A stretch of DNA of 64,000 nucleotides from Octopus sinensis (Eukaryota). The notes beneath the pieces are model-generated. The model saw only the letters and a list, made by a program, of their open reading frames with translations, was not told the DNA's origin and ran no database searches. Positions within the stretch are counted from its first letter, which is position 1. Each line of letters begins with the position of its first letter. Positions 1,945-27,469 of the stretch are shown here, in pieces. The translations under genes were made by a program, and so were the position numbers. The stretch is taken from contig NC_043001.1 in the NCBI RefSeq assembly GCF_006345805.1, positions 38,006,001 through 38,070,000 on the forward strand, read 5' to 3'.

Positions 1945-2341
1945 ACTCTCTCTCTTTTACTCTTTTACTTGTTTCAGTCATTTGACTGCAGCCATGCTGG
2001 AGCACCACCTTTAATCGAGCAACTCAACACCGGGACTTATTCTTTTGTAAGCCCAGTACTTATTCTATCGGTCTCTTTTGCCGAACCGCTAAGTAACGGG
2101 GACATAAACACACCAGCATCGGTTGTCAAGCAATGCTAGGGGGACAAACACACACACGCATATATATACATATATACGATGGGCTTCTTTCAGTTTCCGT
2201 CTACCAAATCCACTCACAAGGCATTGGTCGGCCTGAGGCTATAGTAGAAGACACTTGCCCAAGGTGCCACGCAGTGGGACTGAACCCGGAACCATGTGGT
2301 TGGTAAACAAGCTACTTACCACACAGCCACTCCTGCGCCTA
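1945..2341 (-). mobile_element. tRNA-derived CORE-type SINE, near full length
   Basis: Minus strand begins GGCGCAGGAGTGGCTGTGTGGTAAG (A-box-like) then GGTTCAGTCCC (B-box-like) and the CORE motif ACCTTGGGCAAGT. Related copies lie at ~23770-23900, ~27300-27460 and ~30380-30600. Confidence 0.85.
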
Positions 2342-3755: not shown

Positions 3756-5269
3756 CGCTGAACCGCAAAAGAAACACAATTTTTTCAAATGTTATTTTTA
3801 TATGGTAAATTCTGAAAATTTATTTCGGGGATATAAGTGTAAATATTCCAAGACATGCTGTTTATGGCTGAGACCCAAATTGTAGGTAACCTTTCAACTT
3901 TCCCTGAAACGAGACGCCAAAACACAGCTGCATTGAATGCAGTGGGTGGCAGTTGCAAACAATTGTCATGAAAACCAAAATGCACGTGCATCTCATTGGA
4001 GGTTATGGGTATAAAAATCAGCTCAAACCATATTCCTGGCATTCATAATTTGGATGCATCAAGCATGACCTGATTGTCAGCAGCGCAGAGAGAACATGCT
4101 ATTGGTCAATTGCAAGCAGGGCAGCATACCTGGTTGTTGCGAAAGCTTATAATGTCCATGTCTGCACCATCTATTGCCTGCAACAGTGATACAACAAGAC
4201 CAACAGCACTGCAGACCGTGCCTGCAGAGGGCACTCCTGGGTGACCATGCCCAGGTAGGACTGTTTCATCCACCTTTGACACCTCTGTGATTGCTTTGGA
4301 CTTGCCAGTGTGACAGCTTATGAGACCATTGGCACTGGACAGCAACCCATCAGTGACAACATGGTATAACATCAACTGTCCGCCAACAACCTGCATTGCC
4401 ATCATCATGCTCAAGGGCTTGTCCTTGCCACCCACCACCATCACACATGACTACAGTGGAGCACACTGCACCAACAATGGAGGTCAATAGTCTTCTCTGA
4501 CAAGAGTCAGTAGTGCATTTCTACCTCAGATGGCAGAGTGAGGGTGTGACCTAGGAGGGGTGAATGCAACAGAGATGCATGTGTCATGGAGAGAGATATA
4601 TGGCGTGTACAAAGCATCATGGTTTGGGGTGCTATATACCTGAATCAGAGAATTGGGCCCCATGTGTTCCAAAATGTTGATGCAGGCAGAGGGAATGGCA
4701 TCACAGCACAGCACTACGTTGACCAGATCCTAAGACCTCACATCGTGCCCTTCTTCACATGTCACCATAGCCACATGTTCCAGCAGGACAGTGTTCCCTC
4801 CCACGTCGCCAGGGTCACCATGGAATTCCTGCATCAGAACCATGCAGTGGCCAGCTCTCAGCCCAGATTTGAACCCAATTGAACTCCTGTGGGATGAAAT
4901 CCAGTGACGGTTGAACCAGGTGGTCCCAAGACCAACAGCTTATGTGGAACTGGGAGTAGCTTTCCTCAGAGTGTAGGCACAGGTGCCAATGGCTTTTGTG
5001 AACCACCGCATGCACTCTGTGTACCAACGGTGTATGGGCGTTTTAAACACCCAGGGAGGGCATACACGGTATTGAACATGTCACACCCTACAATGTCAAT
5101 GTGCTAGATCCACCCACTACCAGAACATATGACAACGACCCATAGACTGTAGTCAAAGTGCATCCAAGAAATTGACTTTATCAGATATATCAAAATTTAT
5201 CTCTGACATAATGAAATTAAAACACATTTCACAGTCACACATATCTCGTGTTTCTTTTGCAGTTCAGTG
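3756..5269 (+). mobile_element. Full-length degenerate Tc1-family DNA transposon
   Basis: TIRs CGCTGAACCGCAAAAGAAACAC and GTGTTTCTTTTGCAGTTCAGTG, flanked by TA at 3754-55 and 5270-71. Transposase remnants include SIMVWGAI, FQQDSVPSHVAR and SPDLNPIELLWDEI, with frameshifts. Confidence 0.9.
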
Positions 5270-6014
5270 TATTTTATATTTGGTTTTTAGCTTCTTTCCT
5301 ACATGTTAATATTCTTAATGTGTTGATAAAATATCAAGTATTTTAAAGGAAACATAGATCAAGATAGTTATAGTTGATCTGAAAAAAAAAAGCAAATCCT
5401 TGGAGAAATTTGTGAAGTGAAATTTATTCTACAGACATACTAACTGATGACAATATTTGGTTTTTGCTTGCTATCCTTTTTCTTTTTCCTATTAAACTGC
5501 TTAATGAAATGAGATAAAGTAAACTATTTTTCTGTATTAAGTTTCTTAGAAACAAACTGGATACAGTGAGTGTTGTAAAGTAGGAGTATGCTTCTAGAAA
5601 GCTGAAATCAGAGTTGATCTTCGGTCAAAGCCATTCTACTTTGTTTATACTGATAACAGCTTACAGAAAAGCATTAACATTACCTTTGAATCTGGAGTGA
5701 GAAGACCAACAACAAATAGAAATAGCTTAATAGTTTCTGTAAACATACTAATCGTGTTCCCTCAGATGGAATATGTATTAAATGCTTGGAACAGTCCACT
5801 CAAGAAACCATTGGCTATATTTATTTTGTGCCTTATAAGCAACAACCTTTTTAATACTATCATCATTACATTTCTTTTCTTTATATCAAGTTTTCTTAAA
5901 AATAAAATTATAAATTCAATGTACTTAGATCTATGGTTAAAGTTTTAACAGCTTAATTTTGGGCTTAATATAATTTTTTATTTCCTAATGTTAGAAACAG
6001 TTCTGTATTACCTT

Positions 6015-6922
6015 CTGTCTACCAGAAAGTTTTCGGACTAGTTCTGTAGCATGCCAACAGGTGGCAGCACATAGTAGCATATGCAGTGAGAGCTAGCAGT
6101 GACCTACATGAGGCAGTGTGCTGAGTGACATCACTGCTTATTTTGCAAGTTGTGAAATTTGTGTTTTTGTGATCACAAGTATGATGTAGTGTATGATTTT
6201 GTCATGGACAGGAACGAGCCAACATGAAATTTTGCCTTAAACTTGGGAAGTCTGCTACGGAGACATTGAGCATGCTTCGGCAAGCTTATGACAATGAGGC
6301 AATGGGTTGTACGCAATGTTTCGAGTGACACAGGCACTTCAAAAGCAGAAGAATGTCCCTAGGAGACAGTGAGCGATCTGGAAGACCTGCCATGAGTGTC
6401 ACTCCTGGAAATGTGATATTGTGCATCAAGAATTCATGCCCCAGGGCCAGACCATAAATCAAGAGTTCTACTGCGATGTTTTGAAACATCTGAGGGAGGA
6501 CATTCAGCGAAAGCGACCGGATCTGTGGAGCTTGAAGAATTTGATTCTTCACTATGTCAATGCACCCTGTCACTGAGCTCTCCTCACTCTTGAGTTTCTC
6601 ACCAAAAACAACATGGTATCGCTTCCGCACCCACCCTGTTCACCAGATTTAGCACCTGCAGACTTCCATCTCTTCCCCAAGATGAAAATGCAGCTCAAAG
6701 GTCACTGTTTTAACCACCATTGTTGAGATCCAGAATGAATTATTGACGTCCTCGACTCAGGGAAAATAACTTCCAGGCTGGATTCCAAAAGTGGCAGGAA
6801 CACTGGGACCAGTGAATTGCTGTGCAAGGTGACTGTTTCAAAGGAGATGATGTTAAAACTTGGATAAATAAGTTATTTTTTATTAAACATAATTAGTCTG
6901 ACAACCTTTTGATACCACCTCG
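6015..6922 (+). mobile_element. Internally deleted mariner element
   Basis: Transposase remnants MKFCLKLGKSATET... and LPHPPCSPDLAPADFHLFPKMK. Right end ...GATACCACCTCG followed by TA; left TIR degraded. Confidence 0.85.
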
Positions 6923-7459
6923 TACATTTATATGTCCAAACAAAACCCAACAGCTTTACATTTCATAAGTAGGACTATGAAACTCTTGTTTTGACTATTC
7001 ACATAAATATTTGAATGTTTAGAAACATCATCTTTGATACTATAAAAAGATAAATATAGATTTACTGGGAAAAATAATTAGACAGCCATCATTTTTCAAA
7101 ATATTTCCACCATATTTTTTCTGTTTAGTTAATTAATGCCTATCTTATTTCTTAACCCCTTGTGTTACATATTTCTATCACAAAATGTCCAATTCATGTC
7201 ATTTTCTCACATTTAGTGAGGAAGTTGTTTGCTGAATGTGAGAAAAATGAAATAATCTGGCAATATTTTAAAACCTTGTCATTTAACAACAGTTTAAATT
7301 CAATAAATATGCCTTGCATTACCTTTCTCTTTATTTTAACAATGAAGTGTTATCTCACGTAACTGTCAATTTGGAATTTACAGAAAGAAAAGAATGTTTA
7401 AATAGAACTAACTCTAGCTCTTTTAATACCATGTTGGTATGCAGAGATGAATTATAAAG

Positions 7460-7925
7460 CTGTAATAATAATAATCCTTTCTACTAAAGGAATAAAACCT
7501 GAAATTACATTGACCCCAGTGTTTCACTAGTACTTAATTTATCAACCTTGAAAGGCAAATTTGACCTTGGTGGCATTTGAACTCAGGACGCAAAGATGGA
7601 TGAAATGCTGCTAAACATTTTACTCAGTACGCTAACGATTCTGCCAGCTTGCTGCCTCAATAATAATAATGATAATCCTTAGTGGTAATTCAACTGTCTT
7701 TACATTCTGTTCAAACTCCACCGGAGTCGACTTTGCCTTTCATCCTTTCGGGTCGATAAATTAAGTACCAGTTGCATACTGGGGTTGATCTAATCGATTG
7801 GCCCCCGTCCCAAAATTTTCAGGCCTTGTGCCAAGAGTAAAAAAGAATAATAATAATAATCCTTTCTACTAAAGACACAAGGCCTGAAATTTGTGTGGAG
7901 GGGGGGGGGGCTAGTCGATTAAGTT
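7460..7925. mobile_element. Cluster of Nin-domain SINE copies in both orientations with (AAT)n tails
   Basis: Recurrent GACTTTGCCTTTCATCCTTTCGGGTCGATAAATTAAGTACCAG core and TAATAATAA tails. Confidence 0.8.
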
Positions 7926-7934
7926 ACTGTTAAC

Positions 7935-10900
7935 ACGATGGTTAATAATTTTATGGGTATTTACCAAGTCAGTTGCCAGACATCGGAGCTTCAGTGTATC
8001 CATGCCCAGGGAAGCAAGGCATTCAGAGTATGGTAGATGCCTGATGGAGAGGATTTGCTTGGTTGCACATCTCTGAACAGTTTCTTATCTGAGCAAGATA
8101 TGGGTTCCAGACCGGTGATACAAATTCCAAGTGTGGCCGCACCATAGCCTTAAATAGATAGCTGGAGAGTGGCTGACAAAGGTCTTGCTGATTGATGTCA
8201 AGATAACCCTGGCCTCGACAATTTTAGAGCTGCACAAATTGCTACTGACAGTAATGCCCAGGTCACATTCACAAGAAAACTTCTTGATATTAGTGTTGTG
8301 GAGGGAGTATGTGGATGCTGGGTTTTTCCTCCCAAAATGCATGGTGGTACAATTGTCCACAGCCAGCTTGAGTTGCCAGTCCTTGATCCATTGCTGCAGT
8401 GTGTCCAAGTCCAATTGCAGGAAAGATCTATAGTGTTCAGGATCTGTCCTTTTTATCTCAAGGTACAACATGTCATATTTCAGCATTGTGGCATTCTTTA
8501 AGTTGGCATCTATGTCATTAATGTATGCAACAAACAAAAGGGGACCAAGAACAGATCCCTGCAGTACACCAGATGATATCTTATAGGCTGAAGAATGCTG
8601 TCCTAGAACAGTGATTACCGCTTTTCAGCTGAGAATGGATGACTACAACCAGTTATAAAGATCATCTTTCACACCCATTGCAGAGAGTTTTGCCATAAGT
8701 CTTTCGTGTGACACAGATTAAAAGCTTTAGCAAAGTCAAGGTAAACAACATCCACCCATGAGCCGTCATCAGTGATCCAGGTGATGTCTTCAAGAAACAG
8801 TAAGTTGATCATAGCAGCTGGAGTAAGGGATAAATCCAAATTGTGGGCTGGATAAGGCTGTGAGAATTCCAGAAGTTCCAGACTTTGTGACACAGGATTC
8901 CATCAGTTTGGCAATGCAGCTAGTAAGACTGACTGGACAATAGTTGACAGACAACATGTGGTCACCCTACCCACCACTTTTGAAAAGCAGGTATGTAACA
9001 CCATCAAGACCAGGAGAGGCATAGTGGCACTTATTCTTAAAGTGATGTTGCAACATTGCAGGTGTAAATTTCATAGTTGTTATAGAATTTGATGTCAGAG
9101 TTGGTGGAGATGGTACATTTTGATTTTCAACAGTGAAAATGCCTGCATAGCATTCAGCAATGAGTTCTGTGCACTTGTGTGTACCACTCCCAGACCCCAC
9201 AAAAAACACATATTGCTGACAGCAATAAGATGAAAAGTGCTGCCTCTTTAAAAGTTCCGTCCAGGGAACACTGCCCCCATCCCCAAGCGATGCTAATGGT
9301 TGTTCTACGCATTCTTTGAGATCGTCAGTAATCTGACTTGTGTGGGGTTTGCGAAAAAGACCAACTGGAGAGCGAGGTCTCTACATTGAATGTACATATT
9401 TCCAGAACACTTTACTGTCAGTGTTGGTTGCTATGCATTGTTCAAATTTAAGTACTCTCCTTTCTGTCACCTGCTTGAGATGGATGATTTATTGCGCTTT
9501 TTCTATTTATATCTGATTTATGCAGTTTGTATTCCAGTTCAGCATACAACATTCTTTCCTGACAAGTCTGACTGCTGCAGTCTCCCAAATTGCAATTTTG
9601 GGATGTTTTTTGTGCTTACGCGGTACTGATGTTGTACATACTGTCTATATTGAGCTCAGAATGTTTTGAAGTATAGTATTGTTCTTAGTCTTCATAAATG
9701 ACTTGCCCGACGACCTCACGCAACACACCCTTCTATTTGCCGATGATATCAAACTGCTCACGGTGATATAGAGGATCTTCGTCGATGCCTCCACCAAATT
9801 TGGAGGTGGTCTAACGAATGGGACCTGTGTCTGAACGTGTCAAAGTGCTGTCATCTGCCTGTTGGCTCTCCCCCTGCAACTCAACTTGATTTCGAGCCGG
9901 GTTGTCTGCTGCTGGAGAGGACCGATCAGGTAAAGGACCTGGGTATCTTGGTGGATTCCTCCTTTTCGCCTTCGGCCCAGTGCGTCCATGCTGCCAACAA
10001 AGCACGCGGAATTCTGTTCTTGATTCGACGGTCATTCGGAATGCTCACAGCAGCCATATTCCTACCACTCTATGTCACGCTGGTGAGACCCATATTGGAG
10101 TACGGGATTCAAGCCTCTTCTCCTTATCTCCTCAAAGACATACAGCATCTCGAAAGAGTCCAGAAGCTGGCTACCCGCATGGTTCATGGTCTCAAAAATT
10201 TGTCCTATGAAGAAAGGCTGAGGACGCTCGACCTTTATTCTCTAGAAAAACGCCGCCACCGTGGTGATCTCATTCTCGCCCACAACATCATAAGCGGAAA
10301 GTGTAACCTCTCGAAGAGCTGTTCTTCACTCCTGCTCCAGAGCGTCGGCTGCGGGGTCATTCCGAAAAGCTCTACCTGCGACGATTTCATCTCAATCGAA
10401 GGAGAGGAGCTTTCTCTGTCCGGTTGCGGATCCGTGGAACAAGCTGCCAGACGAGATGGTGAAGATGCCGACGACCGCTTTGTTCAAAGCCTCCCTTGAC
10501 CTCAAGTGGCCTGAACTCTTTACATGAACACCACCCTGTACTTAACTCCATGTCCCCCTACATGGCCTTGCTATTTGCTTTTGAGCCAAATTAACTAACT
10601 AACTAACATTCACATCTCCAGAGTTGTAAAATTCCAACTAGTTTGGGCATTCTAGCTCAGTGCAGTAAGAGTTCCAGTCTAAGCGACCAGTTTGGAAATG
10701 GCTGTGGTCTTTGTTACTGCCCATAAGGGACAAATTGGCAATGATCAGAGTTGCTTAAAGGTTCCTCAGTAGTAACACTAATAACCATTTCAGGAGTAGT
10801 GGTAAAGAGTAGATCCAAAGTTTTGTCACCTCTTGTTGGGGAGTTGACTACTTAGAACCAGTTTGAGTCCAGCACTAGCTCAAGGAAATCATTTGCATTT

Positions 10901-11950
10901 TGCAGCCAACAAAAGGTTTCCCAATCAATCTCAGCATGATTGAAGTTGCCTGCAATAAAAACAATTAGTGGCTGTTTTCCTGATGGCAGTTCTGAAGATA
11001 TCACAAAGTTGTGTGTCCTGATGGTAATTTGGTGGGTGTAGGTAAACAACTCCAAGTAAAAGTGTTGACACAGTCATACATATATCGCAGAAAATTACTT
11101 CTTGTGATTGGTTCAAATCAATGCAAGGAATTGTTGAAAAGTTTGAATGAATGTAGACCATCTCACCACCTCTACAACAATTAATATGGTCTTTGCGATA
11201 CAGGTTGTTGCCAGCTATACTGCAAATCTCATCACAGAATAAGGAATGTGCCCATGTTTCCATGACTGTAATGAAATGGGGGTTGATACCTTTGACGTAA
11301 GAATCAAAAAGATGTATTTTGTTGCACAAACTATGAGCATTTAAGGACAACAATTTGTACCTTGATTTCAGGCTATGATGGTCTGTAGGGGATGGCAGAT
11401 TGTTCTGATTTAGTTTCCCACAGTTTTTTCACTGCCAGCTATTGTGGTACAGTGTATTCGGACCAGCTGGTATCTCCTTTCCATGTTTCACCAACCTTAA
11501 TAAACTTCCATATCTGCCCATCGTCACATAGGCTAAAGCTTTCATGTTGTGCTGAGTTGCGATTTAAGGAAGCTGCAGCATGTAGCTTTGTACGTACATC
11601 AGGTGTTAGGCCAGGGCATGTTCTAAAGGTAATTCTATTTTCACATCTAGCTTTACCAGGGGCTAAAAGGTATGAACGTGCCTCAGTAGAGTTTGAAAAA
11701 GACAGCCTGATTAGTTTGGGTTTTGGTCCTAGTTGACCAAAGCAGAGAACACCCTTTGGAGGAGCACAGCCTAGGTTTTTGGATGAGCTGGCAGCAAATT
11801 CCAGAAGGTCAGCTATGTCCTCTGATACAACAATGGCAATTATTTCGTGGCTAACAGATTCAGTGGCTGTCTCAATGCATCTAGATTTGGCAAGAGCCAC
11901 AGGGAGATTTTTTAGCCAGGCACTCCGATAAGATCTCTCATTGCAGAGTT
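7935..11950 (-). mobile_element. Old CR1/L2-type LINE (ORF1-like region, APE endonuclease, RT), decayed and interrupted
   Basis: ORF fragments: 10931-11353 LSLNAHSL..ITVMETW (endonuclease), 10852-11055 AGNFNH, 8669-8893 VDVVYLDFAKAF and 8085-8537 FVAYINDI..WQLKL (RT). 11439-11900 is ORF1-like. Confidence 0.85.
9677..10607 (+). mobile_element. Young 5'-truncated CR1/L2 LINE nested in the older LINE
   Basis: LFLVFINDLP..LFADDIKL and a 220-aa ORF containing [28 protein letters not shown]; ends in a (TAAC)n tail. Confidence 0.9.
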
Positions 11951-12169
11951 CTACATGAACACTTGATTTGATTTCTGCTATTTCTCATCTTAAAGGTGAA
12001 ATCATTTGTTGTATTTCTGCAAACTCTGTATGGATGGTCGATCTTTGTTGTTGTTGATGTTCTTCAACAAGAATGGTAGGGGAAGACACAGTCATCCGTT
12101 GTTGTTGATGAGAGGTAACGGGAAAGGACGACATGAGTTGCACAGACTTTAAAGAAGTGAAGCTTGCCA

Positions 12170-12680
12170 TAGATGATTTCATACGCAGAACCATGGCTAG
12201 TTTGCAGAGAATATGCCACCTCATCGATGGTCACATTGGTTCACCAGAACCATCTTTCAAGCTTGTTGAGTCTTCACACTAGTGATGGAGGTTGTTGAGC
12301 ATCCTGCTCTCTCTTCATGCTTCACTCTTGTCTGGCCATTTTAAAACTTCTTGATCCATTCATACTCACTTCTATAAGGCAGAGCACTTTCCTTGTACTG
12401 TACTGAAAGTTTATGATGAATTTCAGCCCCTGACACAGCTTCAGACTAGAGAAATCGGATCACTGATTTCTATTCTTCTTTGGTGCACACTGCCAGTGGT
12501 GCAGCTGTGTTTACTCTGTAACAGAAGAAAGAAAACTTGAACAATCTAGGTCAAACTTTGGTTATGTAACCACAAGAGTACCACCTTTTAGTGCACAAGC
12601 ACTGAAGGCAGTGTGGCCAACCTAAAGAAATTTAGACAAAAGTACAGATAATTTTTTACTTCTAGGATTTACTTAGTTTG
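12170..12680 (-). mobile_element. Mariner 5' fragment (HTH region), degraded
   Basis: Minus-strand remnant resembles a mariner N-terminus (..VYEWIKKF..GQTRVKHEERAG..). No intact ORF. Confidence 0.5.
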
Positions 12681-15135
12681 CACTATTACTGTCTTTGGTA
12701 ATAATACCCTTTATTAATTGTAGTTGTGTTTAAGAATAGCAGAGTACTGGACTAAATACCAAACAGTTGTCTCAACTCCAAATTTCACCAAGATGAACTT
12801 TATCTTTCATTTTTCCAGGAAAATAAAATAAATACCAAACTTGTACTAGAGTTAATTCAGTCAAACATTCCTGCTTTACTAATTTTTAGCTTGTGCCAAT
12901 CTAAAAAAAATTATTAATTATAGCTATCTTATATCAATCTTAATTAGGTTTTAAACTCTGGCTGTTATTTTGTTGCCAGACGTTACATCTAGTTTTCATC
13001 ACGTTGCCATGCTACTTCAATTTTCTTATTTTCATATATCAATTTAATACATCTAGTTTTTAGTTACCAGTTTATTTTGTTTCAGCTATGTCTGTTATTC
13101 TCATATAAGAAAAATGTGTTCATTCACCTGTGTGTTTTGCTCAGCCAGTACTTATCTAAAGTTTTAATAGTATTAAGCAAATGGAATACAACTTGTCCCC
13201 TGAATACGCTGTTGTTCTTTCTCACATCTTTCTCCACAGACAGCACTGAACTCAAAATTACAAGTCAATAAAACACTCCTCAACTTTAAAGTGTCATTAC
13301 TCTAAGATTTATTTGTCTTATTTGCTGACATAATGCAATGATGGTAGTGGTGGTAGTAGGATACAAAGTGTTAATCTCTTGACTGATTTTTCAGTATTTT
13401 ACCAGCTTCTACAAAGCTTTTTCAATACTGTAACCAAAATCCCCTGTAATAAACTCTCACGATTTTAAAAAATAGGACTACATTACTAGTTCAAAATATT
13501 ATGACAATAATCTAAATATTAATTAAACACATTTATATTTTTTTATCTGGTGTTTCTATGCTAAGGTCTTCCTCTATGCTATAGATCTGCCTCTATGCTA
13601 TAGGCCTGTTCAAACAAAGCAAACTAGAGCAACACAATAACAAAAGACTTACCATATTCTTCATTAACTTTCAAAAGTGTACTTAAGAAAGCAAAAAAGA
13701 GGGAAAACTCAAAATGGTTAAATATCAGCCAAATCTCTTCCAAATTGTATCTTTTTTATGGACAGAACATTTGAGATAACATAATCTTACATCCCCTAAA
13801 AAGACAATATGGCCATGGTTGGGAAGTCTTTGATCATAGGTCTGCTCCATCAGAATTAACCAGGAACTAAAACATGCTTTTAATGCATGCTTTTGTTGTC
13901 TTCTTTTTAATAAAAAGAAATAACAATTAAGGCTCTTCATATTGGTTTATTAAATGATACTCATAAACTACCACTTTGTGTTCATAAAACTTTGTTGAAA
14001 TTGTTAGAATTCACATTGTAAAATATCATCCTTAGATCTAGGAGACTACAAAACCAGCACTGTGGCTGTAGAAAACTATTTTCATGTATTTCTAGACTAC
14101 TTTAAACTGTTCAGAAGATTAAACTGTATTGATTTACAAATTTTATTCCCACATTAACTAAGGATATACTTATACATACACAGGATGTGCAGGATGCATG
14201 TGATCCCCAAAATAGCAAAACCATTGTTTTTACCTTGCTTGGAATGAACTAACTGTCATTTTATATGGTTCTTAACAATCATTATTCTACTGTCACCCTC
14301 GCTCCATTCTCTCTCTTTCTCTCTCTCTCTCTGACATTTCTGGCACCCCCAACTGATGAGAACAAAATATTTTCTGGTAGCATTTTTTTTGTTTTAGTAT
14401 TTGACAGCTGGGGCTGACTGACATAAGCAGTTCTATCATCTGTTGTTGAATGGTGAGATAGTTTTTTAGTCATAAACTAATATCAAAATACCAACACCCA
14501 CTCCTGTACTAAATCTATATTGTTCCTCCTCCTTCCCACTTCCAACTCCTTCTCTCCACCGCCAACTCCTCCTCCCCACCTCCGATTCCTCCTCCACTGT
14601 TTAAATAGAGATCAGATGGGTTTTCAATTAGCTCTCAGTTTCTATTTTTATAAGTCATTGATGTAATTCTTTAGTTTATCACAGACTTTAAAAAAAAAAA
14701 CAAGTTCATATATGATTTTATGTATTTTTATCAATTAAATCAACAACAAAGGCATTGTTTAGTTTGATGGCCATGTTAGGTTGTGGATATTAACTATTGT
14801 TATTAACTGCTCCTCTTGGGTAATGGTTTGTAGAATTGTTTGCATGTCAGACAAAAGCTTTATGACATCAACTTAACAGCACTTTATGGTTTCACTTCAA
14901 ATCTTACTATGGTTGACTTTCATTCTTCTGAGGGGGCAGTTGGATATTCATATTAAATAAGTATCAATAAAGTACCTTGTGTGAATTCAGGTTTTCTCAA
15001 GTATCACATACCACCAGTCATCCTGGTCCTTTGTCATCTCTTCCATGTGGTTCAAGGTCCTGAGATCAGCCTTCATAACTTTGTCTCCCATTTTCCACAA
15101 GTTCCATCCCTGTTAAGTGATTGACACTACTTATA

Positions 15136-15940
15136 CAGAGTGTCCAAGAATTAACTATTTATCTCAATGAAATCAGGCAAATTAAAAAAAAAACTGACAT
15201 GATTTTATGTTTATTACTTATGATTCCAAAACAAATAGATTTATAAATCTTGCATCAAAACTTTATTGAAAATTTTCAACATGTGCTCTGTCTGTATCCC
15301 TGCAAATTCCAAATCTATCCTTAGTATTACAAAACACATTTTGAGGCATTTCAGAGTTATCTCCTGCACTTCTAACTGAATGTGTTCTTTAAGTTCAGCT
15401 AAACTATTGCCCCATCCAGAGGATGGAGATAGAGAAAACGATTGCAGCTAACTTTTAAAAATGCTGTCACGGACAGATAGGCAAGATCCAACAGGAATCA
15501 TCATCATCAACTTTCCATACTGGCACAGGTTGGATGGTTTGACTGAGGACTGGCAAGCTAGGAGGCTGCACCAGGCTCCAATCTAATCTGGCAGGGTTTC
15601 TGCAGCTGGATACCCTTCCTAACGCCAACCACTCTGAGAGTGTAGTGGGTGCTTTTTACATGACACTGGCACGGAGGCCAGTCAGGTGGCACTGGCATTA
15701 ACCATGCTTGAATGGTGCATTTTACGTGCCACCAGCACTGGCATTGGCTGCACTTGAAAGGTGCTTTTTATGTGAAATGAAAATAAAATTTTCATACTCG
15801 ATGAATGAAAATAAAATTATTTAAAAAATTATAAAAATTTTTTAAATATATACAAAATAAAAAATTCATACACTTTTAACACATCAAATATGATAAATAT
15901 AAATAAAAGTGCGTTTTTATTTATATTCTGGGACACCCTG
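15136..15940. mobile_element. Tc1/mariner deletion derivative inserted into an RTE fragment
   Basis: TIRs CAGAGTGTCCAAGAA and TTCTGGGACACCCTG with TA on both sides. The flanks rejoin as RTE sequence (~14995-16070). It also carries an internal RTE 3' end at ~15498-15770. Confidence 0.75.
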
Positions 15941-16677
15941 TACAGTTGTCCTCATCTTTATATATCACATGTCCATAGCATGGCAGTCTTCTTTCTTGCA
16001 CACTGCATCTGATTCCTTTTATGCCCAATTTTTTCTCTCAACAGATTTGTACTTTCAATTCTTGTAAGTAGTTAAAATAGTCATGCACCATATCAGTTCA
16101 TTGACTTTGTACCTTTTCTACAAATTTGTTGCTTGTGTAACTGGGAAAATTTTTACAGTGTGGCAATAAGTTCTGTACATGATCTACTACCCAGTTCTGA
16201 TTTGTAAATCAATCACAATCATCAAAGCATCAGTGCCCCAACTTCTGTTTTCTTCTTTCCTACGTATCTTAGGTGTTTAGCTTTCCTTCTCATAAATTCC
16301 ACCAACATTGCTTTCTAACTTTCTGGCATCAAGAAAATGACAACTAGTAAGTACTTAGGGTCAAATATATCAACTTATATCCCCACTGCAATATTACTTT
16401 GTCATCTGTGACTTTGCAAAATCTCATTATTCTAAACTAATTCCTCCATCTAGTCAACATTGCCTTTCATTATGATTGTCTGAAAATTTTTTAAAAAATG
16501 AAAGAAATTGTTTTAAATTTCAAGCATTCACTTCATAAAGATTTTTTTTAAGAAATGCCATAAATATCAGTTTTCTGTGATATTTCTCCACCAATTTGTA
16601 ACTTTATCCAGTGTAATAAATCCTTGTCACCATTATTATTACTATGATTATTATTAATATTCATATTTTACTTATAG

Positions 16678-16740
16678 ATCCTGATGTTGTTGTTACCAAT
16701 TTAACAGCTGTGAAGGATGAAACTGCAGGAAGGAAAACTG
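16678..16740 (+). CDS. PDX1: PDX1/SNZ PLP synthase, first identified coding exon (phase 1-1; xPDVVVTNLTAVKDETAGRKTG)
   Basis: tttacttatag acceptor, 63 nt open, GT donor at 16741. Joins in frame (G|GA) to GTFKVKAG of the next exon. Sequence is poorly conserved, so less certain than the other exons. Confidence 0.65.
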
Positions 16741-17364
16741 GTGTGTTTTACACTTTAATTATCTTATAATGTATGACTTCACAAAACTGTTGACTTTTTG
16801 ACACAACCTGTTCACAGCTACAACAGTTGTGATATTTTAATTCTTTTTACAAGGCTAACTTGTTGAAAAATTAAAATTGCTTAACTTCTGAATTTAGGGT
16901 TACAGTTACCACTTCATATTATAGCTAGTTGCAATCTGCTAACATTTTCAACATAACTCATTAGCATAGTTTAGCTTGTATCAATCAAAAAAGAAATCAA
17001 AATATAAATTATTCTCTGTAATATAATGTAATAATGCTAAAGGAAAAGAAATGTTGGTTATATTAAAACAGTAGTTTATAATTTTTTTTCTCCTACTAGC
17101 CATCTTAAAATACAATATGAGAGCAGATTGTGTGAACAGTAAATCCAAACCTTTCTGCTGTATTGACCAATCCTCACAATACAGAATAAAAATAATATAT
17201 AAGTACAGAAACCTCATTCAGACCTCAAGGGTATGAAAATAACTGTAGAATGTGCTCACTGTTTATGGTGATAATCTCTATATACTTAGGTTACCTGAAC
17301 TGAACCAGCAAGAATTATTGCCATAGTTTGTGAGAGTTTTCCTTGGGAAAATATCTTCACTGAA

Positions 17365-18356
17365 ATAATAAGAATAGCCTGGGCAAAGTTCAGAGAGCTC
17401 TTACCTCTGCTGGTGACAAAGGGCCTCTTGCTCAGAGTAAAAGGTAGACTGTATGATGCATGTGTATGAACAGCCATGTTACATGGCAGCGAAACATGGG
17501 CCGTGATTGCTGAGGACAAGCGTAAGCTCGCAAGGAACAAAGCCAGTATGCTCCGATGGATGTGTAATGTCAGTGTGCATACTTGACAGAGTCTAAGTAC
17601 CTTGAGAGAAAAGTTGGACCTGAGAAGCATCAGATGTGGTGTGCAAGAAAGACGACTGTGCTGGTATGGCCATGTAGCGAGAATGAATGAGGATAGCCGT
17701 GTGAAAAAGTGCCACATCCTAGCGGTTGAGGGAACCTGTGGAAGAGGTAGACCCAGAAAGACCTGGGAACATGAGGCCTCACTGAGGCAATGACTAGTGA
17801 CCAAGACCTTTGGAAATATGCTGTGCTTGAGAAGACCTGGCAAGCCAAGTGAGACCATATCCGTGGCCTATGCCAGGGGTGTAACCAGCCCACTTATGCG
17901 TACCTTTCCTTCATTGGACACTAAACTCTGCTTGCGAAAATCTGTTGAGGTAAGTGAAATCAAAATCAAATTCGATGACTGGCATCCGTGCTAGTGGAGC
18001 ACTAAGAGCACCATCCGAGCATGATCATTGCCAGAGCAGCTGACTGGCTTCCATGCCAGTGGCACGTAAAAAGCACCATTTGAACGTGATCATTACCAGT
18101 GTCACCTTACTAGCACTTGTGCTAGTGACACATGAAAAAAACATTGCCAGTACTGCTTGACTGGTCCTCATGCCAATGGCATGTAAAAGCACCCACTACA
18201 CTCTCAGAGTGGTTGGCGTTAGGAAGGGCATCCAGCTGTAGAAACTCTGCCAGATCAGATTGGAACCTGGTGCAGCCATCTGGTTCACCAGTCCTCAGTC
18301 AAATTGTCCAACCCATGCTAGCTTGGAATGCGGACGTTAAACGATGATGATGATGA
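17365..18356 (+). mobile_element. RTE-clade LINE 3' portion in a PDX1 intron
   Basis: RIAWAKFRELLPLL..., RRLCWYGHVARM..GRGRPRKTW; 3' end CCAACCCATGCTAGC..CGGACGTTAAACGATGATGATGAT. Confidence 0.9.
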
Positions 18357-18734
18357 AAAGTCAGAAAGTTTCATTTAAAAGTTTGATAATATTAAATATT
18401 AATCTAGAATCAGTTGACTGGCAGAAATTTTAAGATGATGATCTAACTGCTTTGCAGTATTTAGTTTTTCTCTGTTTTATGTTGAAATGTTACTGTGGTT
18501 AACTTTAACTTCTCTGTTTTCTCACTCTCTCTTGCTTTCTTTTATCCTTACAAATTTGTATTCTTTTTTTGATGTTAGAATTGAATATGATACATTTAAT
18601 CTTTAACATAATGCTTACTTATGTAACCTATTTCAGTTTCATTTAATTTATAGGCTTACATATTATTTTTGCTAGATTCAAGTCATTCTCCTTATAACAT
18701 TAGTAAAATATATGTTTTTATTACTTTATACTAG

Positions 18735-18835
18735 GAACCTTCAAGGTCAAAGCTGGTATGGCACAAATGGCTAAAGGAGGAATCATTATGGATGTTACCA
18801 ATGCAGAAGAAGCATGTATCGCCGAAGAAGCTGGA
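18735..18835 (+). CDS. PDX1: PDX1 exon ([34 protein letters not shown])
   Basis: AG acceptor and GTAAG donor; contains the AQMxKGGxIMDV signature with the conserved Asp. Confidence 0.95.
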
Positions 18836-19018
18836 GTAAGTCTGTCTTTTTTTATTTGTTTTTTGTTGACAATAATGAATTCTTTCTATTGCTTAAGATC
18901 TGCTATAATGTAAGAGCAAAGCAATAATTTGAAATTTATTTTATCAACCTGCAAGAGATGAAAAGTATCATTGATCTTAATTGCATTTGAATGCACAAAA
19001 ATATGGCATCAGACTAAT

Positions 19019-19320
19019 TATTAATTAGCACCAAGTCTCATGTTCTTGGGTTCAAAGTGAATCATCTGTGATCCTTTCTCTTTTCTTACATTAATACTAA
19101 TAATTTATTAATGTAGTTGAAATTAGTTGAAATGGACAGACCAACAGAATGCTAATAGAAGGATTAGCTCACCTTACTATTAATTAGCACCAAGTCTCAT
19201 GTTCTTGGGTTCAAAGTGAATCATCTGTGATCCTTTCTCTTTTCTTACATTAATACTAATAATTTATTAATGTAGTTGAAATTAGTTGAAATGGACAGAC
19301 CAACAGAATGCTCACCTTAC
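19019..19320. repeat. Recent direct tandem duplication (~135 bp identical, period 159)
   Basis: TATTAATTAGCACCAAGTCTC...CCAACAGAATGCT occurs at 19019-19153 and again at 19178-19312. Confidence 0.95.
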
Positions 19321-19801
19321 TGTCTCAAGATCAAACCTACTGGGATCAACTTGTCTTTCAATTTTGGAAGTTAATTCAACCAGCTATATTCTATTGCAAC
19401 TAGAATTAGCATCCTCCCTTCTCAAATGCAAGATTTTTTTTTATAATTTGTGAGTGTATGAAATTGAAGTTTTGCTTTTCCTAAAGATATTAGCAATGTA
19501 AGTAAAATAATTGCAGATAAAATTACTAATTAGTATATGAAAGCAGTTGTCAGAAATATAAAGAAATGTCGTTCAGAAATATATATTTTGAGCTTTTTAG
19601 TAAAGCATATGGAATAGCTTACTCTTTAGCTTGCTGCTCAAAAATAACCTTACAGATTATAACTTCAAGGGTAGTTTTCTTCAAATCAAACTAATTCACT
19701 TTTGCATTATCATCCATAAATGTATGTGGTTCTAAACGAGACTTTCACAGGAAAGTCCTTATCTATTTCTTATGACATAACTTTTTCATTTTATTTCATA
19801 G

Positions 19802-19882
19802 GCTTGTGCTGTTATGGCGCTTGAAAGAGTTCCAGCTGATATTCGCCGCCAAGGAGGTGTAGCCAGAATGACTGATCCCTTG
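19802..19882 (+). CDS. PDX1: PDX1 exon ([27 protein letters not shown])
   Basis: 81 nt, phase 0-0, AG/GTAAG boundaries; [11 protein letters not shown] signature. Confidence 0.97.
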
Positions 19883-20167
19883 GTAAGTAACTTAATGTCT
19901 CTCTCTTGCTTAGCATTGGCCTTCTTAATTCCTTAGAAGGAATAATTTGACATAATTCCAACTTTTAGTAATGAATGGTGTATTGATATGTAATCAACTG
20001 ACAATGTTTTCATGCTAAATAAAGTGGCCATTACAAAGTATCTTACAAATGTAAATTTATCCATTTTTCCCATAGAAGTTAGCATATTTAATTGTTATTA
20101 CAGAAATATTAGGGATTAATTAATATCATTGAAGTTTGCACTAAAATAAAAAAAATTTCCTTTGAAG

Positions 20168-20288
20168 AAAATTAAAGAAATCATGAATGCTGTTACAATA
20201 CCAGTGATGGCTAAAGCCCGTATCGGTCATTTTGCTGAAGCCCAGATTTTGGAGGCTTTAGGTGTGGACATGGTCGATGAATCTGAAG
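20168..20288 (+). CDS. PDX1: PDX1 exon ([40 protein letters not shown])
   Basis: 121 nt, AG/GT boundaries; contains VMAKARIGH with the first catalytic Lys, and DESE. Confidence 0.95.
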
Positions 20289-21043
20289 GTAAATACACAA
20301 GTTTTTAATTACAATTATGAGTTTTGGTCTTTATATTTGATGACTTACTTTTCTGTTTCTCTGATTAAAGCAACCCTAATATTTTCAGATAATATCAAGT
20401 TGTCTTTCTTACATACTCTGTTTTGGGGTTCTTGTTTTGTTATATTTTGCCAGAGTTAATTTCTTATTGTATTTTAACAATTTAATCAACACAGCATATT
20501 AGGGATAACATTTCAGTGATATTAAGTCTGTAATTTTCTTAGTTGTTGTAACCACTTCACTAGATTTTATGTCAGTTTCTGTTCTTGAGCAAAACATAAA
20601 TATCACACAAATCACATTTTCTGCCCTTATAAAGAGAGGTCAGAGAAATCAATATTTTTTTTATCATCATTATCAATCATCATTTATTTTTGTATTGCAC
20701 ATCAAATGACATAACTACTCTGTATGTATTAGCTTTTTTGTGAAGATTGTTTTCAGTTAACATGAATGAGTAGCAACTAAACAATCACAATTTCAAATCT
20801 TCTTAGATTGTTTATTTAGCCCTCTGCTTAGACTGTTTATTTAGCAATACCACATAAGTGTATTTTTCTGTTACTAATGTCTTTGTAAAGTAAGATATGT
20901 TGCTCAATTTGTTATGTCCTTTACATCCTCTAAGTTCAAAATACTGCTACAGAACTGTTTTTAATTTTGAACACTTTGATGGTCCTACCTATATATTTCA
21001 GTAATTCAGGCAATAACATAGACAAGGAATAACTCCAAGTTTC

Positions 21044-21106
21044 GGAATGTATCATACTGCTTTTGGAATGTGTCATACTGCTTTTGGAATGTATCATACT
21101 GCTTTT
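21044..21106. repeat. 3 x 21-bp minisatellite GGAATGTRTCATACTGCTTTT
   Basis: Read directly from the sequence. Confidence 0.9.
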
Positions 21107-21274
21107 GCCAATCTGAATTTAATCTGTCAGTCAAACGGAGAGTAGTTTATAATCATTACTGTTGTATGGGTCTGAAATAATTTTGGCATGCTGCAGAATA
21201 GAGCAGCTGTACTTCATCCCTGCCACATGTAGAACTTAGTGCACATGAGAAAACTCAGCTGCACTCTCATTAAA

Positions 21275-21470
21275 TATTCTTTTCTACTCTAGGCACAAGG
21301 CCTGAAATTTTTGAGGAGTGGGATGCAGTCGATTAGATTGACTCCAGTATGCAGCTGGTACTTAATTTATTGACCCTCGGCGGAATTTGAACTCAGAATG
21401 TAAAGGCAGACGAAATACTGCTAAGCATTTCGCCTGGCGTGCTAACATTTCTGCCGGCTTACTGCCTTAC
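21275..21470 (-). mobile_element. Nin-domain SINE
   Basis: Same family as the 7460-7925 cluster; flanked by a repeated CTCATTAAATATT, a possible TSD. Confidence 0.8.
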
Positions 21471-22908
21471 CCTCATTAAATATTGCACTATTTCTGCTGT
21501 TTGAACCAGTTGATTAACTCCCCTGGTAAGACCGATTTGTTCCAGTAGGCAGTAACTTAATGGGAAAAATGATGAGGTGGTCAGACAAATAGTTGGCAAT
21601 GAGACATGAAAATGTTGATGATGAACTTCAGTCACTTGCTTACTACTTTCTAACTGTAAAAACTTAAGCTCAACTTCACTGACAGTTGAAAATGTTTTCT
21701 AGTGTAGCACACGCTCATAGATAATGGTAGTATTTATTTATCTGTTTTCGCTTAACATATCAACCCTTTTTCTGACCCAATTTTGGATAGTGAAGCAACT
21801 TTTTAGTGTGCATTATAACTGAATCTCATAGAAAGTTTAGCTTTGAACTAATAATATGTTGACTTGGTCCAGAAGATGGTTGACAAAGTTTATCAATTGT
21901 GATAGAGTTATACAGAAGATTTTATTTATTTATTCATATGTAATGTTTGAAGATTAGTTTTTATCATAATATGAAAAACAATAGTTGATACACAGCAGGA
22001 TGGATGTAATCTGTTTGTAAGCAATGAAAGATTACTTTTGTGTAACGGTTGGAATTGTGAAAGAAAACATTTATTTTTACTGTTATATTATACAATTCCT
22101 TGCCTCAATGAGCAAGTGATAAAATCGTAAAGCAATTGAAATAAAGATACATATAGATTTTCCTTGCATAGTTTGTATTTGTGTTCTCGTCATTGTTTAG
22201 TAGTAATTACCAAGAGAGATAGAATGATGTTGTAAGAGAACAGAATTAGAGCTAGTGAGAGTGAAAGAGTGTGGGATGTTTTTCTTTTTCCCTCTGGCTG
22301 TTTGTCTGTCTGCTTTCATGATTCTAGTGGTCAGTTCACTAACTGATGTTAGCTCTCTCTCAACTCGGGAGTTGTCACCAAAGTGACTAACTGGTTGAAT
22401 CGTCACCAAGTGACTAAACTAGTTGAGTCGTCACTAAGTGACTAACTCAGTTGTCCTCGAGTCACTAACTGATTTTTGCTTGGGAGTTCTTGTTTTTATA
22501 ACTATCCAGAAGGATAAACATATCATTGAGAACAATAGATTTAGTTGGTGGTCTTGTTATCTTAATTCTAGCTTTTGGTGAAATAGAAGAGGTTAGAAAG
22601 GTTAAGTGGTGAAGACATTATTTCGGCCTAGCTAAGGAAATCAGAAAAATGTAAAACTCTGTCGCAAAAAAAACCCCATTGATCCACTGTGAGAAAAGAT
22701 CTGTTGAAGTGTTAATTTAAATTTGGCTATGGTGGATTGAATCCACTTCATATATCTATTTATTTTTGTTATTTCTAAGCATGTGTAACAGTGCTATTCT
22801 TCAAGATATTATTTGAAACAGACTTGTGTGATGTGGAGTGAAATACAAAATAGAATGTTTAACATTGAGATAAGTAATTTTTGTTCATTCTCTTTCCTTC
22901 TGTTCTAG

Positions 22909-23055
22909 TCCTCACAGCTGCTGATGTTGACAACCATATTGACAAACACAAGCTCAAAGTTCCTGTTGTTTGCGGAGCACGTGACCTTGGTGAAGCTTTG
23001 CGTCGAATTTCTGAAGGTGCTGCTATGATAAGAACCAAAGGAGAAGCTGGAACAG
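22909..23055 (+). CDS. PDX1: PDX1 exon ([49 protein letters not shown])
   Basis: 147 nt, phase 1-1; EALRRI and [10 protein letters not shown] with the second catalytic Lys. Confidence 0.97.
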
Positions 23056-25278
23056 GTACAGTAGTTTTAATATATCAATTTGTTTTGTTTTATTTTTATT
23101 CTTTTTATTAAAAGACATATTTTTCTCAAAAACACTAGAACAAATAATAGTTAATCTATTTTTATTTCAAGAAGTAGAAGGAAATGTGAGTTAATTATTT
23201 TCATTTTTGACTTTGTTTTTGAGATATTAATTCTTTTTTACTGAATACAAACTAAAGTTGGTATTTGACATTATAAGCAACAACAGGCCTACTGATGAAA
23301 CCCAAACTACTTATCTATCACTTGCTTCTCTTGCTGGCTTTAAATGGCTAGTGGATTATCTATCTTGTGGAAATATAACCACAAAACTAATTCATTGTCT
23401 TATTTGAAAATAAAAATTTGGCAAGTGCTTTGTTGTGCAATTGGTAATGTTGTTGCTAACAAGTGACGGATATCATCATCATCATCATTTAATGTCCACT
23501 TTTCCATGCTTGAATGGGTCAGATGGAATTTGTTGAGGCAGATTTTCTATTATTGAATGTCTTTCCTGTTACCAACCTTCTGTTTCCAAGCAGGGTATTA
23601 TTTTCCCATTGTTAGACATGTTTTTCACAGACTGGAAATGAACACACTTGTTTGTGTGATGATTTACAATCATCATGATGTCTAGTCAAGGGAACACACA
23701 CACACACACTTAGATATGTACATATACATACATACTCACACACATACTTATTTAAATACACATACATACAATGGGCTTCTTCTGGTTACCATTTACCAAA
23801 TCTACTCACAAGGCTTTGGTTAACCCTTGGCTATTGTAGAAGATACTTGCCCAAGGTGTTATGCAGTAGAACTAAACTTGCAACCATGTGACTAGGAAGC
23901 AAAGCTGGTAAGAGCAAGTTTATTGTATACAATGTTCAGGTGCACTACAGATCATCAGATATTCTGCTCTATTTTCTTCTTTATATAACTTCTACTATAT
24001 TGTTTTTCCTATATATGAAATACATTCATTTTTCAGAATAGTAATTGTTTTGTGCAAAACACAGGACCATTTCTTGTAAGAGCACCTTATTGGTACTCTG
24101 CACCCACTCCACTCTGTGATTGATGATGGGAAGGGTGTTAAGGTGTAAAATTCTAATTTAAGCAAAATTTGGAATATAATGCTGTACTGCAAAAATGGTA
24201 AACAAGATGATGATGATACACTTATATTTTTATGTTTTTTACATCTAATTAGATTACAGAACTCCTTTTTAAACTAGGCACAGGCAACTTTTTTTTCAAG
24301 AAGTGAGCTACACTACTATAAAAATTTCAAAAATTTCATCAGGTATGTCATTCAGAAAGTCACACCTGCTGTAGGTTGTCTTTGACTAACTTAAAGTATT
24401 TGATTGATTTTTCATTTAAAAAATATATTTATTCTAATTACAGAATATATTTGTTCCTATGTAACTAATTTAAATAATTACTAAATATATTTTTTATAGT
24501 TAACCAATACAATATCAACTGGCTTGCAATTTGCAAATATATATCCTATTTTAATAATTATATATATTTCATATACATAAAATGCAATTTCTTTTAGTAT
24601 ATAGTATTAAAAGATAGAAATATTGCAAAGTACTGAACTCTTTTTTTTTTTTTAGTTAAGCTTTTTTCTCAGTTAATTTGAGAAGCTGACTTACAATACT
24701 TTTAGCATGTTATGTAGGAGAAGAATTAGTTTTAATTTGTTGTATACTATTGAAATCACAGCTAAAAATTATTCCACAAGGGTATAGTTTTAGTTGGGTG
24801 GTAGCCCTAATCTTTTGTCCTATTTAACACTACAACCTAGCCCTTAGGTGTCATTTAGCAAAGCTATCTCTCTTTCAAGCATTTGGACCAGGCATCCACC
24901 CTTTCTTTACTATTCTCAGAGGCTCTGCATAAGGTCATAAGCAATACTTTTTCTTCCTTGACTAAGATATAAAAGTTGATTTCAATTAAGCTCTTTAAAA
25001 TAAACAGGAAGATGAAGAAATCAATATATTTCTGTTGGCAGAAAAGAAGTTTTAGATAAGTTATAAGTGCTGATTTATTTAGAAGTCAAATGGACAAATA
25101 CTATTTAACTCCAGCAGGATTTGAACTCAGAACACTTTACTCAGATTTTGCTAGTGTCAATATTTTGTCTCTCATTTCAATATTACAAAATTCATCAGTC
25201 AACTCACTACCCAAAATATGCTGTATATATTATTAAGATATTATTTCCAAACTTTTCCTTTTTCTTTGTGCTTTGCAG

Positions 25279-25461
25279 GTGATGTCTCTGAAGCTGTAAG
25301 ACATGCTCGTACTATCAATCGTGAAATTAGAACTGCTCAAGCTATGGACTCAACAGAACTTTATGAATATGCTAAAAAGCTACAAGTTCCAATAGAACTG
25401 TTGCGGAGAACTGCTGAAATGGGTCGACTTCCAGTGGTAAATTTTGCTGCTGGTGGCATTG
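25279..25461 (+). CDS. PDX1: PDX1 exon (GDVSEAVRHART...GRLPVVNFAAGGI)
   Basis: 183 nt, ttgcag acceptor and gtaag donor; LPVVNFAAGG signature. Confidence 0.97.
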
Positions 25462-25734
25462 GTAAGTCTAGTGTTTTCATACAATTCTATACTGTTATTC
25501 ATTGTTGTGATAAGCTCTAATTATAGGATCTACCTCTCAGATATTTGGCATGGACACTCACATTGAACATGTCTGTATTGTATATAGTCACCTTTTTTGT
25601 TAAATGCAGCAGCCAATTCTCACTAAACAAAACATCTTACTCTTTTTCACATATTTTCCATTTACCAAGTTATAGCATGCCTACAATATAAAGTATTATA
25701 AGTGCTTGGACATTTGTATTAGGATTGTAAGGTA

Positions 25735-26080
25735 AGGGTAAAAGTAAAGACCCTCTTTGGTCATGAAGACCATGGGATCGCACCGAGAAAGTTCCCCTCC
25801 AAGGCACAAGTCCGGACAAAGTTGTTTTTTGGAAGACTAGCAGTTGTCCATGCATACCAGCCTCCCCTTTCCATGCCACCGATGTTATCCAAGGCAAAGC
25901 AAAGGCCAGTACAGCTTGGCACCTGTGATGTTGCAACTCATTTCTGCAGCTAAGTGAACTGGAGCAATGTGAAATAAAGTGTCTTGCTCAAGAACACAAC
26001 ACCCAGCCCAGTCTGAGAATCAGGTTTGCTACCTCATGATTGTGAGCCCAGTGAGCTAACCACTGAGCCATGCACCTTCA
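25735..26080 (-). mobile_element. tRNA-derived SINE (Meta-like family)
   Basis: Minus strand starts GAAGGTGCATGGCTCAGTGGTTAG, contains TTCTTGAGCAAGACACTTTATTTCACA, and ends in a (TTTAC)-type tail. Confidence 0.7.
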
Positions 26081-26312
26081 CATTAGAATTGTATATCTTG
26101 CATATCTAAAGTGCTTGAATTATGGTGGTGTCAAGTATTTACTTGGCTACATCTATACTTGAGGTCTGTTGAAGTAAAATTAATCAGACCCAAGAATAAG
26201 ATCACTCCAGCTAATATTTATTTTTTTGTAACTTTTTATGTTATCTTCCATGTAATATCAACTGTTAGTGATATTTACTAATCCAGTGAAAAATATATTT
26301 TGTTTATTTCAG

Positions 26313-26614
26313 CTACTCCAGCTGATGTTTCATTGTTGATGCAACTTGGAGTTGATGGTGTGTTTGTTGGCTCTGGTATCTTTAAAAGTAGTTTACCCGA
26401 GAAACGTGCCAGAGCAATGGCTCAAGCTGTGACCCATTACAATGAACCTTCTGTTCTTGCTGAACTGAGTGAGAACTTAGGTGAAGCTATGTTTGGAATC
26501 CCACATACTGACCGACCACAAGACAAAAGGCGTGAAGGGCCAATAGGAGAGGAAGTGAAGATTTGGAATGCCACTCTAAGCAATCAAAGTTCTTCAACCA
26601 AAGTAAGCAGCTGA
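26313..26614 (+). CDS. PDX1: PDX1 terminal coding exon ([26 protein letters not shown]...stop)
   Basis: tttcag acceptor; [20 protein letters not shown] signature; TGA at 26612-26614; AATAAA at ~26635 and ~26779. Confidence 0.97.
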
Positions 26615-27469
26615 TGACAATCAATAACTGCTCAAATAAACTAGGCTGATAAAATGCTCCTTTTTATAATGACAATTTTTAACCCATGTCTCTCTGAAAT
26701 TCTCTTGACAAAAATTTTATTTTTTCTATTTTTAAATTTGTTTCCTTGTCTCATTCTAATATTTGAAATTGTACATCAAATAAAAGATAATTTTAAGAAA
26801 GAGTTTTGTTCTTTTAGTCTATTTTGTCTTTTATTAAATTTCTCTAGTATTTTTTCGTATTAAATGTAACATCCAATGAAATTTGCAGTTTCTTTGGCAG
26901 AAAATGTTTTCACCATAGCTGTAGACAAGGAACAGCTTTGGTTTTTTGGCTATTCAACCTTCAAGAAATAGTTGTCAAATTTCCTTTATAGAAAACACTT
27001 TAAATAATGTGGTCTGCATTCTGTGTACATAGAACCATGATGGTATGGTCGCAGGTGGAATGCCTTTGATCATAGATTTGCTCAATCAGGACTAACCTAG
27101 GTTAAACATCAAGTAAGACTATTAAAATAATCAACAAAAGTAACCACATTAAAAGAAGCAAAATTACTAGCTTGAAAACAAGGCAATACAAAATAATGAT
27201 TAGTGGTTGTTTGATAGTGATAATAACTGTAAAGTGAATAATTATTTGTTAATTTGAGGTCAATACTAAATAAAGACAACCATGTAAGTAATAATTAGTT
27301 GAGTTGCAGGCATAGCTGTGTGGCTAAGAAGTTTATTTCCAAACTACATGGTTTTAGATCCAGTCCTGCTATGTGGCACCTTGGGCAAGTGTCTTCTACT
27401 AGACCAAGAAAAGCCTTGTGACTAGATTCCATAGATAGAAACTGAAAGAAACCCATTATATATATATCA

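Follow-up and report, generated by a model that had tools for sequence, protein, structure and literature searches.

Can an octopus make its own vitamin B6? The question is raised by a gene for PDX1, the de novo vitamin B6 synthase, in a 64-kb stretch of the Octopus sinensis genome (the window). An initial annotation, made from the sequence alone, described the gene as intact and intron-bearing, with seven GT-AG exons and about 332 codons. PDX1 is not known from vertebrates or insects, and neither group is represented among the protein matches listed in our searches. We propose that the octopus probably has a working, inherited pyridoxal 5ʹ-phosphate (PLP) synthase; judged from sequence, the probability of this is roughly 0.8.

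When all GT/AG boundaries within four bases around the seven candidate exons were combined, only one combination was free of stop codons. The product is 998 nt long: two bases of a split codon, then 331 codons and a stop. These codons correspond, without a single difference, to residues 14–344 of an Octopus sinensis/vulgaris protein already named SNZERR by automated annotation (XP_029636357.1, CAI9722621.1). The first PDX1 exon in the window starts at a splice acceptor and has no start codon. The 12 N-terminal residues of the annotated protein (P0121 in our set) are matched exactly at 5549–5585 of L008, in an exon of 12 codons and 1 base that is followed by a GT donor and lies 4.4 kb upstream of the window. 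Intron 1 is ~21 kb long. The described positions and phases of the seven exons were thus borne out, with 331 codons and a stop, and it is the exon count that needs revision: the gene has eight coding exons, seven of them within the window. Its features are as follows.

G000:C5:38001549-38001585, plus strand: PDX1 coding exon 1 with the start codon, outside the window; placed by the N-terminus match and the GT donor
1..16677, plus strand: 3ʹ part of PDX1 intron 1, given that exon 1 was found upstream of the window
16678..16740, plus strand: PDX1 coding exon 2; residues 13-34, phases 1/1; junction 16740/18735 in three of three putative RNA runs
18735..18835, plus strand: PDX1 coding exon 3; residues 34-67; IMDV with Asp53; in spliced contigs
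19802..19882, plus strand: PDX1 coding exon 4; residues 68-94; in spliced contigs
20168..20288, plus strand: PDX1 coding exon 5; residues 95-135; catalytic Lys110, DESE; in spliced contigs
22909..23055, plus strand: PDX1 coding exon 6; residues 135-184; His144, Arg166/167, catalytic Lys178, GTG loop; octopod changes F150L and F154V
25279..25461, plus strand: PDX1 coding exon 7; residues 184-245; AAGG loop; in spliced contigs
26313..26614, plus strand: PDX1 coding exon 8; residues 245-344; GSG loop, stop codon; in spliced contigs
26615..26802, plus strand: likely PDX1 3ʹ UTR; weakly placed, from a spliced contig of run X2 that extends to 26802, contig ends not being true RNA ends
26779-26784, plus strand: AATAAA in the likely 3ʹ UTR, read from the sequence

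A start codon inside the window was rejected because the annotated N-terminus matches the upstream exon. The O. bimaculoides annotation includes a shorter PDX1 isoform beginning MAQMAKGG. Intron 3 contains a near-exact tandem duplication of ~140–160 bases (19017–19177 and 19178–19320, by reading of the sequence), and an open frame within a PDX1 intron (17289–17867) gave no Pfam match.

The gene belongs to its host genome. PDX1 is carried on a 135.9-Mb contig and is single in the 2.7-Gb genome, all five genome matches falling within this gene. Repeats in its introns (18171–18356 and 21370–21468) recur elsewhere in the window, as had been noticed in the initial annotation, where they were taken for putative SINE/RTE families, and also on the contig that carries PDX2 (see below). 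The adjoining genes bear the eukaryotic Pfam domains CEP44 and N_BRCA1_IG. Contamination is unlikely on these grounds, as had been argued.

The CEP44 domain (E = 4e-25) lies at the N-terminal end of a 456-codon open frame on the minus strand (31794–33161); this frame is either one unusually long exon or else a retrocopy. The N_BRCA1_IG domain belongs to a gene with exons at 59269–59637 and 54148–54480, both on the minus strand; this gene presumably resembles ILRUN/C6orf106.

Is the gene spliced? We examined four of 24 listed sequencing runs. Three are putative RNA runs, which come from three studies and carry two organism labels; the fourth, a large one, is DNA-like. The RNA type is a tool's guess, none of the 24 being recorded as RNA, and the contigs give no expression level or tissue. 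Each of the three putative RNA runs has all six GT-AG junctions between exons 2 and 8 in single contigs, and these spliced contigs have a depth of 286–729, as against 2–11 for the listed unique intron pieces. In the DNA-like run all six junctions are missing, and intron coverage is about 44–54. This shows that spliced PDX1 molecules exist. Together with the single stop-free splice and family profiles above their cut-offs, the contigs support the description of an intact, intron-bearing PDX1 in an animal genome.

The octopus protein scores 351.5 bits with the PF01680 profile (cut-off 27) and passes both NCBIfam PdxS equivalogs, NF003215 (472.9 bits; cut-off 395) and TIGR00343 (460; cut-off 438.45). 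It matches about 32–33 solved chains of the PDX1 family, with Arabidopsis PDX1.3 the best (E = 6e-125) and no animal chain among the ~33. All catalytic residues align with those of the family structures (Arabidopsis PDX1.3, 5K2Z/5LNR; B. subtilis, 2NV2). The octopus protein differs from the solved proteins in its longer N- and C-terminal tails and in the AQMAKGG and PADVS signatures of the animal group. A search of the ESM Atlas returned nothing beyond the family name, and a 50%-identity protein library yielded only distant representatives.

Every motif named in the initial annotation (IMDV, both lysine motifs, and the phosphate-binding GG and GSG) is present in the spliced product. At 17 of 17 key positions checked, octopus PDX1 agrees with at least 290 of the 292–293 other rows of our alignment. 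With a constant offset of 12, Asp53, Lys110, Lys178, Gly182, Gly242/243, Gly264 and Ser265 correspond to Arabidopsis Asp41, Lys98, Lys166, Gly170, Gly230/231, Gly252 and Ser253; two papers (PMC8827014, PMC8313854) assign the acid Asp, the two imine-forming lysines and the phosphate-site residues. The P1 phosphate loops are intact: Gly182/184 (GTG), Gly242/243 (GG) and Gly264-Ser265-Gly266 (GSG). His144 and Arg166/167, which we take to be the P2-site residues, are also present in the alignment. We infer from its likeness to the solved proteins that octopus PDX1 would fold as a (beta/alpha)8 barrel, assemble as a hexamer or dodecamer, and bind PDX2. Plant pseudoenzymes of the PDX1.2 type are defined by loss of catalytic residues; we rejected this identity because those residues are intact, and the match to PDX1.2 is 313 bits versus 420 to PDX1.3.

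Crude NG86 comparisons with five intron-free animal-like loci gave dN of 0.15–0.18 and dS of at least 1.96 in all five cases; since dS is saturated, dN/dS is given as an upper bound only, of ~0.1. This is far from the value of 1 expected of a decaying gene, and both exonic variants in the examined contigs are synonymous. The comparisons indicate that PDX1 is under strong purifying selection. The family is slow-evolving everywhere, with 68% identity between the octopus protein and that of a plant.

PDX1 works with a partner, PDX2, that the initial annotation suggested seeking in the genome. A PF01174 profile search found an intact PDX2 on a different contig from PDX1 (G000:C13514, 67 kb). It has three coding exons, 100% identical to annotated PDX2, and the motifs PGGEST, GTCAG, FIRAP and FHPEL; it scores 167.8 bits with TIGR03800 (cut-off 106). 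From these motifs, its glutaminase triad is Cys117, His226 and Glu228. PDX2 is also annotated in Octopus, Argonauta and Sepia. The contig shares the repeats of the window, and PDX2 is therefore not a contaminant. A PDX1-PDX2 fusion, or a PDX2 within the window, was rejected, as a six-frame motif scan of the window detected neither. Fusion proteins of ~530–620 aa do exist (P0231 and relatives), one of them from the haptophyte Prymnesium parvum.

How would the two subunits make PLP? By analogy with the family, PDX2 would hydrolyse glutamine at Cys117, His226 and Glu228, and the ammonia would be channelled to PDX1. Lys110 would hold ribose 5-phosphate as an imine, and Lys178 would join it to give the cross-linked I320 intermediate. 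Glyceraldehyde 3-phosphate would then be added and PLP released. With the residues intact and the partner present, the suggestion that this animal makes its own vitamin B6 is probably correct.

The genes could instead be inherited and transcribed while the octopod enzyme is weak, or has a narrower or different role such as local antioxidant B6, with dietary B6 handled by salvage. The changes F150L and F154V, common to Octopus and Argonauta and absent in Sepia, affect columns that are 97% and 99% conserved, the only near-invariant columns at which the octopus protein differs. PDX1 and PDX2 are unlinked in octopods. The octopus genome also encodes a pyridoxamine-phosphate oxidase domain of the salvage route, so that the bulk of the animal's B6 may come by another way than de novo synthesis. 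Two reviews say that “most animals” rely on diet for B6 (PMC6253932, PMC6071262). However, all catalytic and phosphate-binding residues are kept, purifying selection is strong and PDX2 is intact. Moreover, both substitutions exchange one hydrophobic residue for another, and their occurrence in Argonauta suggests that they have long been tolerated. We consider a weak or diverted enzyme unlikely.

Where did the gene come from? Intron positions were compared across 27 PDX1 loci on metagenome contigs from a motif scan, assigned to organisms by best match only. Introns are present in 12 of these, 10 most like stony corals and two most like the clam Mactra. In the other 15, the matched part is uninterrupted by introns; these are likely transcripts and were excluded from the intron count, and five of them served for the dN/dS comparisons. 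All 35 introns measured in the 12 loci are at the positions of octopus introns, at codons 68 and 95 (phase 0) and 135, 184 and 245 (phase 1). In 11 of the 12, codon 34 also has an AG acceptor in phase 1, the donors there not being seen. These common introns argue that PDX1 was inherited from the cnidarian-bilaterian ancestor, and not transferred into molluscs. One octocoral-like PDX1 (L118, a contig of 2907 bases) has no introns and may be a transcript or an intron-less gene.

Two coral-like loci, L103 (217–2815) and L112 (2680–7855), carry PDX1 and PDX2 head to head, with PDX2 2.1 and 3.8 kb, respectively, from the codon-34 exon of PDX1. This arrangement suggests a bidirectional promoter. The PDX2 intron of L112 is at the same place as an intron of octopus PDX2. 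Linkage extends to other animals: the PDX1 and PDX2 records of Nematostella and Dendronephthya are on scaffolds of the same size, and those of the snail Gigantopelta share a contig at a distance of four gene models. Contigs of different sizes carry the two genes in O. bimaculoides, O. vulgaris and Argonauta. Octopods thus appear to have separated the pair. The SNZ and SNO genes of the sponge Suberites domuncula are reportedly adjacent, in contrast to the octopod genes. An intron-bearing, head-to-head pair would already have been present in the cnidarian-bilaterian ancestor and would later have been separated in octopods, and lineages that have neither gene would have lost them.

PDX1 is widely distributed among animals. 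The 120 best protein matches include orthologues from cephalopods, a chiton, gastropods, bivalves, the annelid Owenia, anthozoans, a scyphozoan and the sponge Dysidea, and clusters of the listed matches add further corals and Hydractinia. The sponge protein is 77% identical to that of the octopus. Automated annotations of invertebrate homologs, whose existence had been anticipated, span molluscs and cnidarians as well as one sponge and one annelid. For PDX2, annotated records include those of cnidarians and of two choanoflagellates, Salpingoeca and Monosiga. In two Batillaria records (P0016 and P0020), PDX1 is joined to a PF13837 domain; these are likely merged gene models.

We also built a PDX1 tree of 67 rows, chosen from 296 and from later-named proteins, using a quick IQ-TREE run with SH-aLRT support only; it includes no named choanoflagellate PDX1. 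Octopus PDX1 groups with those of Argonauta and Sepia (98). A single set (97) takes in every one of the 24 named animals, together with six rows lacking a species name. This set is apart from Chloroflexota, plant, chytrid and protist sequences. The plant sequence joins Chloroflexota with a support of 93, unstarred. Contrary to the species tree, mollusc and cnidarian PDX1 join (98), with Owenia outside, and both are without the GIN motif near the C-terminus. This grouping could be hidden paralogy or an artefact; a clade of molluscs and Owenia is not rejected (p-AU 0.168). The introns are stronger evidence for inheritance than the tree. Together, the phylogeny and intron positions favour ancestral retention over transfer into molluscs, two histories between which the initial annotation had made no choice.

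A recent horizontal gain by cephalopods or molluscs, or an assembly contaminant, would fit the absence of the gene from vertebrates and insects, in which PDX1 is not known and which do not figure among the matches listed. It also has a precedent, since an SNZ/SNO gene of cyst nematodes is tabulated as horizontally acquired in PMC4901422, citing Craig et al. 2008. The nematode resembles the octopus in being an animal with de novo B6 genes, but its genes are reported as acquired, whereas octopus PDX1, with its coral-like introns, looks inherited. We rejected an acquisition of the nematode type because the nearest relatives of the octopus gene are animals and its introns are common to coral-like loci. 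A recent origin is also at odds with the 135.9-Mb contig and the host repeats, with orthologues in chitons, bivalves, gastropods and cephalopods, and with the rejection of a clade of molluscs and the nearest Caldilineae (p-AU 0.012, for a group picked after the first trees had been seen). The common introns refute it unless the coral-like loci are misassigned, and we regard it as extremely improbable.

A far older event deserves somewhat more weight: PDX1 and PDX2 could have passed from a bacterium, such as a member of the Chloroflexota, into the animal or holozoan stem, gained introns, and then been inherited. This differs from the inheritance that we favour only in what happened before the cnidarian-bilaterian ancestor. 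The best 80 prokaryotic loci that we kept are mostly from Chloroflexota, at 64–76% identity, near the 77% of the sponge, and 50 of the 80 have PDX2 within 1.5 kb. However, short octopus peptides served as seeds for the scan, and the sample is biased accordingly; the slow evolution of the family, with 68% identity even to a plant, also bears on these values. In the tree, Chloroflexota are apart from animals, beside the plant, chytrid and protist rows, and PDX2 is annotated in two choanoflagellates. An ancient bacterial source is improbable, slightly more so than a weak enzyme.

On balance, we favour inheritance from the cnidarian-bilaterian ancestor. De novo B6 synthesis seems likely, with rather less assurance than the presence of the synthase in octopus, to have been ancestral in animals: a head-to-head, intron-bearing pair would predate the cnidarian-bilaterian split, would still be working in molluscs, cnidarians, sponges and some annelids, and would have survived its separation in octopods. 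Octopuses would then be B6 prototrophs.

How much of this is new? Gain and loss of B6 genes were reportedly discussed by Tanaka and colleagues in 2005. Octopus PDX1 itself is already known, being an annotated gene of a known pathway with an animal example since 2001. That example is the sponge Suberites domuncula, with SNZ and SNO (Seack et al. 2001, as cited in PMC7954711); as in octopus, both subunits are in an animal genome. The citing paper states that animals cannot make B6, yet names “some sponges”. In 2021, the vent snail Gigantopelta aegis was credited, from annotation, with B6 synthesis by the host. That paper (PMC7895826) lists annotated SNZERR-like (K06215) and pdx2 (K08681) genes, and the SNZERR-like protein was detected in three of three individuals, by one peptide each. 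Its B6 claim is a pathway mapping, with neither assay nor phylogeny in the text covered, and its two genes are four models apart, unlike the split octopod pair. Fig. 5 of the paper scores B6 synthesis in other molluscs and may include Octopus bimaculoides. With the protein annotated, many animal orthologues known and a snail host credited in 2021, the surprise that the initial annotation attached to PDX1 in an animal was overstated. Our contribution is the evidence for inheritance, from common introns and a coral-like head-to-head pair, and the separation of the pair in octopods.

In the literature covered, which includes few subscription papers, neither a study of cephalopod PDX1 nor an enzyme assay from a mollusc or cnidarian came to light. 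PMC11237949 mentions metazoans once, PMC10192322 deals with symbionts only, and the glass scallop supplements (PMC13212745) have no match for five gene terms. If the trait is ancestral, “animals cannot make B6” describes repeated losses and not a rule. Should activity be shown, a textbook generalisation on animal B6 would be corrected, with a bearing on how feed for cephalopods and for shellfish is formulated. In the symbioses of molluscs and corals, vitamins would then pass in the opposite direction to the one now assumed.
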